From positions 32,001 through 96,000 of IMG/VR virus record IMGVR_UViG_2703718869_000013: a DNA stretch of 64,000 bases; one strand, 5' to 3'. Below are positions 43,203-46,435 of this stretch, one piece after another. The notes beneath the pieces are model-generated. The model ran no database searches. It saw nothing but the letters and a program-made list of their open reading frames with translations, and was not told where the DNA came from. Every line of letters begins with the position of its first letter. The stretch's first letter is position 1. Both the position numbers and the translations under genes were made by a program. The DNA is from a virus (Duplodnaviria; Heunggongvirae; Uroviricota; Caudoviricetes).

Positions 43203-43246
43203 GATTGCACCTTAATTAGAACAATTCACATCATGTTTGAACGGAA

Positions 43247-43268
43247 TTTAACACTAGTCACTTGTTAA
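43247..43268 (-). promoter_or_regulatory. Late-promoter-like motif on the minus strand (TTAACAAGTGACTAGTGTTAAA) upstream of the portal gene
   Basis: ACAAGTGAC core as upstream of the head gene and lyz. Confidence 0.4.
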
Positions 43269-43513
43269 GGATTACCAATGAACAAGCTATCTATGTGGTG
43301 TTTCGCTGTTCAAGTGTCAGCGAAATATTGAAATATATTAGTGCAATAACATTTCATCGGGCGCCGATTAGATACGGCGTGGAAAAGGTGGAAGGCAAAA
43401 GCTATGACCGACTACGCCGGACGTGAAATAATATGTCCACACTATCTGATACAATAAAACCGAATAGGACATAACTTCGACGTCAAAGCCTTGGCACAGG
43501 CTGGAGAGAAAAC

Positions 43514-43762
43514 TTGAAAAAGCGATACTACACAGTAAAGCATGGGACGCTACGAGCATTACAAGAGTTTGCTGACAAGCATAACGTTGAGGTGCGCAGG
43601 GAAGGGGGAAGTAAAGCTCTGCGCATGTACCGTCCGGACGGGAAATGGCGTACGGTCGTCGATTTCAAAACTAACAGTGTTCCCCAGGGCGTCCGCGATC
43701 GGGCATTCGAAGAATGGGAGCAGATCATCATAGATAATGCTCTGCTACTAAATGCTGACTGA
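43514..43762 (+). CDS. Hypothetical small protein (weak HicA-like pattern)
   Basis: 82 aa, TTG start with GGAGAG Shine-Dalgarno; GGSKALRMYRPDGK resembles a HicA GSxH region but with Lys in place of His. Confidence 0.35.
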   Translation: MKKRYYTVKHGTLRALQEFADKHNVEVRREGGSKALRMYRPDGKWRTVVDFKTNSVPQGVRDRAFEEWEQIIIDNALLLNAD

Positions 43763-43800
43763 GTTTAATATTACAATATTATCTGGGAGATAAATGCATA

Positions 43801-44535
43801 TTATTTTCCAGATAATAACTGATGTTTTGCATATTCACGTGGCGTGCAATTATAATATTGCCTGAACAGGCACACAAAGTACGATGTACTACTAAAGCCA
43901 CAGCTTTCTGATACTTGTTTGACTGAATGATTTTGCTTTAGTAATTTAATAGCGAAAGCCATCCGTGTATCAAGTAATAACTTACTGAAGGAGGTGTTTT
44001 CCAATAATAGTTTTTTCTTTATTAAGCTTTCACTCATGTAGAGATAATCGGTTAGGTCTCTTAGTTTCCAGTGTTTAGATACATCTGAAAGAAATATGCT
44101 GCGCACTTTCCCTGAGAAAGTGGGCATACCAGACGTAAGAAATGCTCTAAAGTTATCAACATCATTAAAAATTGAGAGTAATGAAAAAGTTACTGCCTCC
44201 CTAAAATCAGAATGGATATGATTTTGGTCGCTTATATTATCGATCATCCTGATTAATAAATCAGGATAGGCAAAAGACTTTTTTAGCAAATGTGGACACT
44301 TATCCAGCGATTGGTTTCCAAGGTTGTTGCTGCATAATAAATAGTTTCTTACGGTATTATCATTGAGTTCGAATTCTATATATTTGTCTGAATACATTTT
44401 TAAGCATTCATGCTCAGAATGCTTAAGCAACAACACATCACCGTAATTTAATATCAAGAAATCCTTAAGAAATTGAAAGCTTATAGGTTTCTTTATGAGT
44501 ATGAAGTAACAAACTGCTGACATGGCCACCACCAT
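43801..44535 (-). CDS. AraC/XylS-family transcriptional regulator
   Basis: C-terminal HTH signature VKQVSESCGFSSTSYFVCLFRQYYNCTPREY; very AT-rich gene. Confidence 0.85.
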   Translation of the reverse strand: MVVAMSAVCYFILIKKPISFQFLKDFLILNYGDVLLLKHSEHECLKMYSDKYIEFELNDNTVRNYLLCSNNLGNQSLDKCPHLLKKSFAYPDLLIRMIDNISDQNHIHSDFREAVTFSLLSIFNDVDNFRAFLTSGMPTFSGKVRSIFLSDVSKHWKLRDLTDYLYMSESLIKKKLLLENTSFSKLLLDTRMAFAIKLLKQNHSVKQVSESCGFSSTSYFVCLFRQYYNCTPREYAKHQLLSGK

Positions 44536-44661
44536 TCTAAAGAGGCTTTGAATAAGAATAGAGATAGCCAGGCTCAGAAATCAAGAAGTTGTGTAAAAAT
44601 AAAATTATTGATTTATGTCACATTTTTTGATTGTTTTAATTGATGTTTTTCAATATTATCA

Positions 44662-44685
44662 CAAACAAACAAACAAACAAACAAA
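44662..44685. repeat. (CAAA)6 tetranucleotide repeat next to a TTGACA hexamer
   Basis: Direct reading; about 100 bp upstream of the EAL gene start, in the divergent intergenic region. Confidence 0.9.
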
Positions 44686-44787
44686 TAAATTGACATTTAA
44701 TCTACAAAAGTAGAGTGTAACTCTTGTAAATATAGGGGGCTCGTTATCTGAGCAAAATCAAGCAATTTAAAACTTGAGGGTGGGGAT

Positions 44788-45477
44788 ATGGAAGTTATCT
44801 ACATTGCAGAACCAATCATTTCTACGAGCACGAACAAGTTGATTGCAGTAGAAGTGTTAAGCAGATTTCGCTCCAAAGATGGTGTCGCTCTTCCTACTCA
44901 AAGAGTATTGGGTATGTTTACCAATAAGATGAAGATTAATTTACTTAAATCACAACTTAACACAATAATGAAATACAAGTGTTTTTTTGAACGCCATAAT
45001 ATACTATGTTCTATTAATGTAGATTATGATACATGTATATATATATACAGTAATAAACAAACTCAAGAGTTAATTAAAAACAATAAATTTATAGCTCTTG
45101 AGATATCAGAAAACTACCCTGATTTAAGCGATGAGGATTACGTTATACCCTTTCTCCTGACTTTGACAGACTATGTTTGGCTTGATGATTTTGGAAGTGG
45201 CAACACCACCATGAAAACATTAATTAAAAATAAATACCATGCAATAAAACTTGATAAGGCCTTTTTCCAAGAATATGGGACTAATCCTCATTTTGATGTC
45301 ATTATTAGTAATTTAAAAAAATTATGCCCGAATATCATCGCTGAAGGTGTTGAAAACATTGAGTGTCATAAGCTATCAAAAGGGATAGGGCTATGGGGTG
45401 CCCAGGGATATTTTTTTCCATCAATTCCTCTGGTGGAGATTGAGTCCATAGATAGTAAGTGGCTATCAGATTTATGA
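44788..45477 (+). CDS. Stand-alone EAL-domain protein, predicted cyclic-di-GMP phosphodiesterase
   Basis: EVL(SRF) motif, E..E.NY, DDFGSG, KLDKAF, AEGVE and GAQGYFF motifs all present. Confidence 0.8.
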   Translation: MEVIYIAEPIISTSTNKLIAVEVLSRFRSKDGVALPTQRVLGMFTNKMKINLLKSQLNTIMKYKCFFERHNILCSINVDYDTCIYIYSNKQTQELIKNNKFIALEISENYPDLSDEDYVIPFLLTLTDYVWLDDFGSGNTTMKTLIKNKYHAIKLDKAFFQEYGTNPHFDVIISNLKKLCPNIIAEGVENIECHKLSKGIGLWGAQGYFFPSIPLVEIESIDSKWLSDL

Positions 45478-45530
45478 GATGCAGAGAGTTAGGATATTGA
45501 TATGAACGTCTAAGCACCTCATTACCATGC

Positions 45531-46175
45531 TTAAAAGATGTTATCCTTACCTGTTAATTTACCTTGAGGAACTTTAGCGAGCTCCATCCGATAAAATGCT
45601 CTTATCATATTTACAAATGGTTCATATGGTGAATATCTGTTGTCTTGTTCAGTAATGGTGTTTGTCATTGTCCTGATGAAGTCTGCGCTTGCCACGTTGT
45701 TGTATTCCGTTGCGAAGCAGCATAACAACGTCAGAACGTGCTCTGTCGTTATTTCGCTCCAGTTGATGTTGAAAAACTCATCGCCTTTTTTATCGTGTTC
45801 GGAATCGAAGATGCTTTGGTGGAGGATGTATTTGCCGGATTCCTTGCGCGGTAACTTGATTGCTTTCTGGCGTTCCAGCTCCTTATAAATCTGCATTGCC
45901 TCAATTAGTACCGGCCTGCCGTTCATGAAGGGATCGCGCAACCTTACACGCTGGCCAACTCGACCAGTAATAAAGCTGTTTTCCTCTTCCACCAGCACGA
46001 TAAAACCCTTCTCCTCTTTTTCTCGCAATTCGCGCAGCAGCTGGAGTTCCATATCGCGGCGGCGTTCAGGGTAGCTGGTCCGCTCAGCCATTATCAGCTC
46101 GTTATTGATCCATGCAGCAGTCATTGACGCCGGTTTGCCGACGCTCATCGAAACAACGCATATTTTCTTATCCAT
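45531..46175 (-). CDS. Hypothetical protein
   Basis: Start moved to internal ATG at 46175 (AGGGGGAG Shine-Dalgarno); track ORF extends to 46322 without a ribosome-binding site. Confidence 0.5.
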   Translation of the reverse strand: MDKKICVVSMSVGKPASMTAAWINNELIMAERTSYPERRRDMELQLLRELREKEEKGFIVLVEEENSFITGRVGQRVRLRDPFMNGRPVLIEAMQIYKELERQKAIKLPRKESGKYILHQSIFDSEHDKKGDEFFNINWSEITTEHVLTLLCCFATEYNNVASADFIRTMTNTITEQDNRYSPYEPFVNMIRAFYRMELAKVPQGKLTGKDNIF

Positions 46176-46435
46176 AGCTCCCCCTACAAAAAAGAAAAGC
46201 CACCAGCGGCGGCTTAGCAATACAACTGAAGGTAGCGCCCGGTACTCAGACTGTGCCGTCCATGGAATATTTGAAAAGGGATCCATCCGTACCGGGCGTG
46301 TGATGATTTTGACTGAAGTCACTTGTCAGTTGTCAATTATTTATTATTAAAAATAATATATTTATTAGTGCATACAAATAATACACTAAGTGTGCACATT
46401 GCAACCTCAGAGAGGAAACATTCAACCAGATTGTT

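Follow-up and report, generated by a model that had tools for sequence, protein, structure and literature searches.

The DNA analysed here is a stretch of 64,000 nucleotides (below, the window; positions 32,001 to 96,000 of IMG/VR record IMGVR_UViG_2703718869_000013), and it is part of a P1-like phage-plasmid that lies in reverse orientation compared to the standard P1 map. Between lxc and mat, where P1 carries the EcoP1I res and mod genes, it holds a 1.7-kb cassette of two divergent genes. One encodes an AraC/XylS-family regulator (43801-44523, minus strand, 240 amino acids from MSAVCYF, with an alternative start at 44535), the other a stand-alone EAL-domain protein (44788-45477, plus strand, 229 amino acids) that is a predicted phosphodiesterase of cyclic di-GMP (c-di-GMP). 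Judged from sequence and gene neighbourhood we lean, with modest confidence, towards the reading that the pair is a module of an adhesin-type AraC regulator and a predicted EAL c-di-GMP phosphodiesterase, captured as lysogenic-conversion cargo. Three sets of observations carry this reading: the pair occupies a defined cargo slot in many P1-like elements, both genes have been kept by purifying selection with the catalytic residues of the EAL protein in place, and the pair or its relatives adjoin adhesin loci when found outside P1.

The lxc-mat interval and its contents

From 40.0 to 50.2 kb the window is colinear with plasmid p08_3342-2 of a Shiga toxin-producing E. coli (STEC) O111:H2 (97.3% identity). 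On its left side the cassette is bounded by the stop codon of lxc, and every variant of the slot diverges directly past this codon. The right edge lies inside mat, 44 codons ahead of the mat stop (P1 coordinate 3336); the last 135 bp of mat (45531-45665) travel with the cassette and have diverged from P1, and the 3' end of mat is variable among the slot variants in general. In P1 the gene order is mat, res, mod, lxc, ulx, darB, prt. The P1 genome OP279344 has a backbone 98.4-99.3% identical to reference P1 and loses similarity only from P1 3336 to 9754, and because it differs from P1 only by the swap between lxc and mat, the cassette replaces res and mod alone. A preliminary description, made from the letters of the window and its open reading frames (ORFs), had placed the pair in a slot shared by res/mod and darB. 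The position of res/mod is correct, but darB was lost separately, darB and ulx having disappeared via two further deletions (P1 17092..10454 and P1 10390..10027). The same description called the whole segment very AT-rich, which holds for 43.8-45.5 kb, i.e., the two cassette genes, where the GC content is 0.30-0.34, but not for the flanking lxc and mat genes (0.42-0.50); the surroundings range from 0.42 to 0.55.

The lxc-mat interval is a variable cargo slot, with conserved flanks and alternative contents. Six states share the junction at the lxc stop: EcoP1I res/mod in P1, CapRel in SJ46 (PADLOC model PDC-S33 at 7e-87), a PIN_12 protein in JL22 (PDC-S34), a DUF2971 protein in MH422554 (PDC-S31), an empty slot of 39 bp in RCS47, and AraC-EAL. 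CapRel of SJ46 is experimentally anti-phage (PMC9712102). The lxc gene is found in 699 of 5426 complete E. coli genomes (about 13%), and 140 of these 699 have the cassette. PLSDB also holds 699 plasmids with lxc; the AraC-EAL region is at least 80% covered in 115 plasmids and the EAL protein is found at 80-90% identity in 135, while P1-type res is matched in 108, the DUF2971 gene in 89, the PIN gene in 23 and CapRel in 22, the last four numbers being matches per plasmid with the location in the slot not confirmed for every match. AraC-EAL is the commonest identified occupant of the slot and is carried by roughly one in five P1-like elements.

The E. coli genomes contain 144 places with the cassette. 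Plasmids account for 138 of them and six are recorded as chromosomal; the two chromosomal places that were examined both have P1 flanks. The possibility raised at the outset, that this is a common chromosomal gene pair picked up incidentally, is not what these data show. Pattern scans of representative genomes from 185,579 species returned no close relatives, the short peptide patterns used being able to reach close relatives only. A one-off acquisition or a chromosomal origin was rejected on the basis of the P1 context of the chromosomal places and of these scans.

The cassette is present in material that is in use: OP279344 is a laboratory P1vir stock, employed in published pAgo experiments, and has the cassette (locus 6743-8368) instead of res/mod. 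Hundreds of public records contain the two genes, under the names 'EAL domain-containing protein' and 'helix-turn-helix domain-containing protein'. The literature searched yielded no paper that connects an EAL protein with P1-like elements or with defence hotspots, and the papers on phage-plasmids and STEC plasmids that were consulted are silent on the cassette; the pan-genome census of E. coli GGDEF/EAL proteins (Povolotsky & Hengge 2016) fell outside the coverage of this search and a systematic Pde name is possible. The pair is less exceptional than the preliminary description suggested: about one-fifth of P1-like elements carry it, and related pairs are found by adhesin operons on other plasmids. 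We regard the cassette as uncharacterised prophage cargo, a predicted EAL-only phosphodiesterase with an AraC partner, made up of component kinds that are already known.

The EAL protein, its regulator and the region between them

The EAL protein matches the Pfam EAL family (PF00563) with 64.8 bits against a cut-off of 31.3, and the match covers profile positions 14-233 of 236. As described earlier, its translation contains EVL, DDFGSG, KLDKAF, AEGVE and GAQGYFF. In an alignment of 16 homologues reaching down to 26% identity, residues E22, R26, N77, E105, E108, D133, D134, K154, E186, E189 and Q206 are invariant or nearly so, and these are the canonical EAL set, i.e., EVLxR (E22 and R26), N77, ExxE, DDFG, KLD (K154), EGVE and QG. 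RflP/YdiV of E. coli K-12 is without most of the catalytic residues (the equivalents of E105, DD, K and EGVE), whereas PdeH and SfaY keep them. With this set in place the EAL protein looks catalytically competent. Its AlphaFold2 model is of high confidence (predicted local distance difference test 92, predicted TM-score 0.89), and the top 50 matches of a Foldseek search of the PDB with this model are all EAL domains. The best match among the NCBIfam models is the one for PdeH (PRK11596). The protein is about equidistant from all characterised relatives, with 26% identity to K-12 PdeH, 28% to RflP, 26% to SfaY and 27% to genes annotated as MrkJ.

The regulator was correctly assigned to the AraC/XylS family on the minus strand, and it exceeds the Pfam cut-offs for both HTH_18 (50.7 bits, cut-off 33.6) and HTH_AraC (38.5 bits, cut-off 26.6). 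It is 35% identical to K-12 YdeO over 233 residues, aligned from residue 1, but scores only 155 bits with the YdeO equivalog model (NCBIfam PRK09940), for which the cut-off is 348, and it does not qualify as YdeO itself. Among solved structures, CsvR and Rns come closest (1e-20); both are pilus activators of enterotoxigenic E. coli, and GadX and ToxT follow.

The two genes are separated by a divergent control region of 264 bp (44524..44787) with a GC content of 0.31. A TTGACA hexamer (44690-44695) lies upstream of the EAL gene, the start of which has a GAGG-type ribosome-binding site ahead of it. Conservation within the region is uneven: in a comparison of four contexts, with synonymous divergence (dS) in the coding sequences of at least 1.4, there are 68 invariant positions in the 131 nt next to the AraC gene and 21 in the other 133 nt. 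The AraC-proximal half is, on this comparison, a strongly conserved putative footprint. Directly upstream of TTGACA is a polymorphic (CAAA)n tetranucleotide repeat (44661..44689; 7.2 copies by Tandem Repeats Finder). Across near-identical alleles n is 6 in the window, 3 in phage Ro157c2YLVW, 2 in ST2747 and 2 in the O111 plasmid, and the tract is absent in the commoner allele. It may act as a slipped-strand switch of promoter geometry. At the other end of the AraC gene a terminator-like hairpin of 17 pairs (43777..43817) lies between the convergent lxc and AraC genes and overlaps the AraC stop codon, and this was the one notable feature of a promoter and terminator scan.

Between P1-borne alleles the ratio of nonsynonymous to synonymous divergence (dN/dS) is 0.11-0.15 for the AraC and EAL genes (0.13 for EAL). 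For the window and the commoner P1-borne allele it is 0.11-0.13 in both genes at a dS of about 0.5, and the flanking lxc and mat genes of the same two alleles have a dS of only about 0.1. Compared with the O111 plasmid, which is otherwise 97-100% identical, the AraC gene is 98-99% identical and the EAL gene 85-89% (44650-45450 compared), and alleles therefore recombine inside the cassette. Taken by its substitution pattern, AraC-EAL is a conserved module under purifying selection, and the statement in the preliminary description that the EAL protein has its own regulator is borne out, as the divergent pair recurs in other contexts and both genes are selected.

Outside P1, the same or related pairs lie beside fimbrial and autotransporter loci on plasmids. 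The same divergent arrangement occurs on an IncFII plasmid beside ParE/RelB and repA (AraC 80% and EAL 68% identical) and beside a chaperone-usher fimbrial operon with PapB, PapD and an usher (AraC 67%, EAL 69%). A 58% identical AraC homologue adjoins K88-type fimbrial genes, a 43% identical EAL homologue has other AraC genes on its flanks, with TibC and an autotransporter nearby, and a 34% identical homologue from Pantoea has a chaperone-usher operon on one side and a TibC-like gene on the other. In CFT073 the F1C operon has SfaY at its distal end, and this protein has the DDFGSGN loop in common with the EAL protein of the window. The contexts outside P1 point to adhesins.

Proposed function of the cassette and alternative explanations

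The following sequence of events is suggested by these features. A horizontally acquired AT-rich two-gene module fills the lxc-mat slot instead of the EcoP1I genes. The AraC protein, a putative activator of the YdeO/Rns type, would control the shared intergenic region with the promoters of both genes, and it probably counters silencing of the 31% GC DNA, presumably by H-NS. The EAL protein, when expressed from the plasmid prophage, would hydrolyse c-di-GMP and lower the cellular level, and the lysogen may in consequence shift from c-di-GMP-dependent matrix and adhesion outputs towards motility. On this reading the cassette would serve lysogenic conversion as a 'moron', and would descend from modules that stand at the end of fimbrial or autotransporter loci in plasmids of E. 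coli. Enzymatic activity, control of the EAL gene by AraC, silencing by H-NS and any phenotype are what we infer.

A number of observations weigh against such a function. Loop 6 of the EAL protein reads DFGSGNTT and the consensus DFGTGYSS, the DFG being kept and the tail being different. The consensus loop, DFG(T/A)GYSS, is required for dimer-coupled EAL activity. The GSGN variant is also present in SfaY, and GAGN is found in inactive YdiV. The best sequence matches in the PDB are the catalytically dead STM1697 (1.4e-27) and YdiV (3.6e-21), the closest structures are again YdiV (TM-score 0.87) and STM1697 (0.84) with active EAL domains at 0.72-0.80, and the score with the PdeH equivalog model is 93.3 bits, below its cut-off of 190. 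The promoter scan gave no convincing sigma-70 promoter (13 promoter-like sites, 11.9 expected). Several copies of the module are also disrupted. In phage vB_EcoM-Ro157c2YLVW, the closest phage record (99.2% identical), the EAL gene is frameshifted (locus 7718-8317) and stops ahead of EGVE and QG, which is either a genuine inactivation or a sequencing error; insertion sequences interrupt the cassette in several plasmids; and the AraC gene of P1vir (OP279344) has a 21-bp in-frame deletion that removes 7 amino acids in the first helix-turn-helix. The latter deletion is seen in only two of the 5426 complete E. coli genomes, one being strain ATCC 98082, and a 90%-identity AraC cluster with a representative carrying it comprises 916 member sequences from read-archive assemblies. 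As disrupted copies exist the module must be dispensable. Finally, the defence genes found in the slot in other elements hint at a different selective role.

The similarity to YdiV and STM1697 raises the question of whether the EAL protein is mainly a protein-binding factor, which would sequester FlhD and turn flagellar genes off, with hydrolysis secondary as in a trigger enzyme. We consider this unlikely, if somewhat less so than the explanations that follow. YdiV and STM1697 are its best matches in both sequence and structure, and an adhesin-linked context would fit a fimbria-linked motility repressor. The two proteins neither bind nor cleave c-di-GMP, and their contact residues with FlhD have been mapped (PMC5622320). 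When these residues are transferred by alignment, the hydrophobic core of the STM1697-FlhD interface is conservatively retained in the EAL protein (F160, L172, L173, L136 and V147 correspond to F159, V171, I172, F135 and I146). The core positions compared (F159 and I172) do not discriminate, however, because the active PdeH is hydrophobic there too. The polar contacts of STM1697 (K167, K175 and H176) have N, S and N in their place. As for the contacts of YdiV (F155, F168, F181 and A184), the hydrophobic positions are conservatively retained; the interface insertion with A184 is missing from the EAL protein. The family has invariant catalytic residues where YdiV and STM1697 have lost theirs, a difference that is difficult to account for unless the protein is catalytic or at least binds c-di-GMP.

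A second explanation takes the other contents of the slot as its starting point. N4-like phages need a glycan made by NfrB. The EAL protein might deplete the cell of c-di-GMP and thereby block phages, such as the N4-like ones, that depend on it for their receptor or for infection. Host and plasmid would be protected as they are by the other cargoes of the slot, or competitors would be kept out, and the commonest identified cargo of a phage-plasmid defence hotspot would then be a regulated c-di-GMP phosphodiesterase that excludes superinfecting phages by draining a messenger they need. It fits that the slot also carries EcoP1I, CapRel, PIN_12 (PDC-S34) and DUF2971 (PDC-S31) genes and that AraC-EAL is its most frequent identified cargo. 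There is also precedent for resistance to N4 conferred by phosphodiesterases, as multicopy expression of six or seven of the E. coli enzymes makes cells resistant (PMC7553319) and as protection by PdeL depends on its catalytic activity (PMC8669472). The (CAAA)n tract could make such an exclusion phase-variable. PdeH, the closest stand-alone active EAL protein, gives limited protection against N4 only, though, and neither protein of the cassette matches a defence-system model of PADLOC-DB 2.0: the AraC protein had no match and the EAL protein only a chance-level match to a cyclase model (E = 0.006, 13.9 bits). Outside P1 the pair adjoins adhesin operons and plasmid maintenance genes, not defence islands, and the literature search tied no EAL protein to a defence hotspot. 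A role in defence is in our judgement improbable.

We give about the same low credence to the cassette being a neutral passenger, i.e., a silenced, AT-rich piece of some virulence plasmid that entered a permissive slot by recombination and hitch-hikes with successful P1-like lineages. A slot that tolerates any content, or none as in RCS47, would admit such a fragment, and the foreign base composition and the disrupted copies agree with it. It is harder to reconcile with a dN/dS of about 0.1 in both genes at a dS five times that of the flanks, with the invariant catalytic residues and the conserved control region, with the rarity of the AraC deletion among complete genomes, and with a presence in about 20% of P1-like elements. 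Anti-defence, by degradation of the cyclic-oligonucleotide signals of host immunity (of the type used by cyclic-oligonucleotide-based antiphage signalling systems, CBASS, or by STING), a role which the preliminary description had touched upon, is very improbable, as all that speaks for it is the fold, that of a cyclic-dinucleotide phosphodiesterase, in a phage-borne gene close to the Dar anti-restriction genes, while EAL enzymes are generally c-di-GMP-specific, the regulator of its own and the moron architecture are of the lysogeny and not of the early-lytic type, the relatives lie beside adhesin operons, and there is no similarity to any known anti-CBASS protein.

If active, the EAL protein of this module would bring an unlisted phosphodiesterase, together with a regulator of the YdeO/Rns type, into the c-di-GMP and virulence-regulator networks of the hosts of a very common mobile element. 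Effects on motility, on biofilm, on the expression of adhesins and on sensitivity to phages that depend on c-di-GMP are possible, and lysogens of such P1 variants may differ in phenotypes related to c-di-GMP. Nothing here is mechanistically strange; what deserves attention is the prevalence of the cassette, its presence in a laboratory P1vir stock and its odd fit with a hotspot of defence genes, which raises the question of why the most frequent identified occupant of a slot that also collects genes for restriction, CapRel, PIN and DUF2971 proteins is a signalling enzyme.

Surrounding genes and comparison with known systems

The genes around the cassette lie in the following order. On the left are pro (40481-41530) and the portal gene prt (41493-43202), both on the minus strand, followed by lxc (bof; 43514-43762, plus strand), which in the annotation of P1-like relatives is a modulator of the C1 repressor. 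This is the 82-amino-acid ORF that was first taken to be HicA-like. That identity was rejected: the gene is 96.7% identical to P1 lxc at the nucleotide level, the protein is unchanged when compared with four other P1-like lxc genes (dN = 0), and the ORF has no match at E <= 0.01 in Pfam or NCBIfam, a HicA domain included. On the right is mat (maturation control; 45531-46175, minus strand, 214 amino acids from the ATG at 46175, in an ORF that extends to 46322). It had been listed as a 214-amino-acid unknown, a status that no longer applies since P1 mat matches it with 96.6% identity over the 5' 708 bp. Further to the right are an icd/ant module on the plus strand at the position of ref in P1 (about 46.4-48.1 kb; 46434-48136) and, on the minus strand, c8 (48340-48651) and cre (48702-49733). 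A 131-amino-acid ORF (49730-50125) overlaps the start of cre and lies between cre and a cra-like gene; it is a hypothetical protein in the annotation of the O111 plasmid, and the P1 reference is without a gene there.

The deletions of darB and ulx have left traces between prt and lxc. Positions 43203..43420 (plus strand) are 96.6% identical to P1 17413-17093 and comprise the prt-darB intergenic region together with the 5' end of darB, of which about 48 codons are left. In p08_3342-2 this stretch is annotated as a partial N-6 DNA methylase pseudogene. Remnants of ulx were found by BLAST at 43415..43517 (plus strand), consisting of its start region (43415-43477, 87% identical to P1 10453-10391) and its 3' end (43486-43517), which matches into P1 10026-9754; 364 bp between the two ends are deleted. 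Both deletions are present in p08_3342-2 as well, and therefore they are not an assembly artefact, while other carriers of the cassette retain darB and ulx. It follows that this lineage has lost part of the Dar anti-restriction set. The preliminary description was right that the segment lacks a restriction-modification system and a gene of the size of darB: no homologue of res or mod is found between prt and cre, and the longest ORF of the window is at most 1110 amino acids, compared with about 2255 for DarB.

The window contains 13 sites resembling the C1 operator, where 0.37 are expected. None is inside the cassette, and the nearest flank it at 43331 and 46436. The former (43331-43347, 2 mismatches) is in the 5' remnant of darB, between prt and lxc, where the P1 reference has no annotated operator. 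The latter (46436..46452, plus strand) is a perfect operator with 0 mismatches, at the right end of the cassette segment where it joins the inserted icd/ant module. In this module an icd-like ORF and a KilAC antirepressor (46988-48100) occupy the position of ref. In p08_3342-2 the module at the ref position is 91% identical to a second icd/ant module between lyz and pro, which corresponds in the window to the Ant gene at 39362-40405 with a perfect C1 operator at 38810-38826 (about 38.8-40.4 kb). With two icd/ant modules that have C1 operators, the window is thus supplied with antirepressor modules under C1 control in addition to the canonical immI.

The known systems closest to the cassette resemble it in part. 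As to the slot, EcoP1I res/mod of P1 and CapRel of SJ46 have the same insertion point and the same lxc and mat flanks as AraC-EAL; they are demonstrated anti-phage systems, however, and share no domains with AraC-EAL, which has no PADLOC match. As to the regulator, the similarity to YdeO is over the full length, and CsvR and Rns are aligned from about residue 42 onward, which places the protein in the branch of YdeO/GadX and Rns/CsvR/ToxT; the window gene is AT-rich and has homologues beside fimbrial genes, but falls below every NCBIfam equivalog cut-off. Among EAL proteins, PdeH (YhjH) is likewise a single cytoplasmic EAL domain of similar size with the metal-binding and base residues kept. 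It differs in being encoded by a chromosomal gene of the flagellar regulon and not by a plasmid-borne gene with a private AraC regulator, as well as in sequence (26% identity). RflP/YdiV of E. coli and STM1697 of Salmonella are, like the window protein, compact and EAL-only, with a loop 6 of the GxGN type, but they have lost the catalytic residues, all of which the window protein keeps, and their polar FlhD contacts are not conserved in it. SfaY/PdeY of the S/F1C fimbriae and MrkJ of the Klebsiella type 3 fimbriae are stand-alone EAL genes that end adhesin operons, like the adhesin-linked relatives of the pair, although at 26-27% identity to the window protein, and although the partners differ, SfaX being MarR-like, MrkH of the PilZ type and the partner in the window of the AraC type. 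The SfaY and MrkJ loci have their adhesin operon, whereas the cassette in P1 is carried without one.

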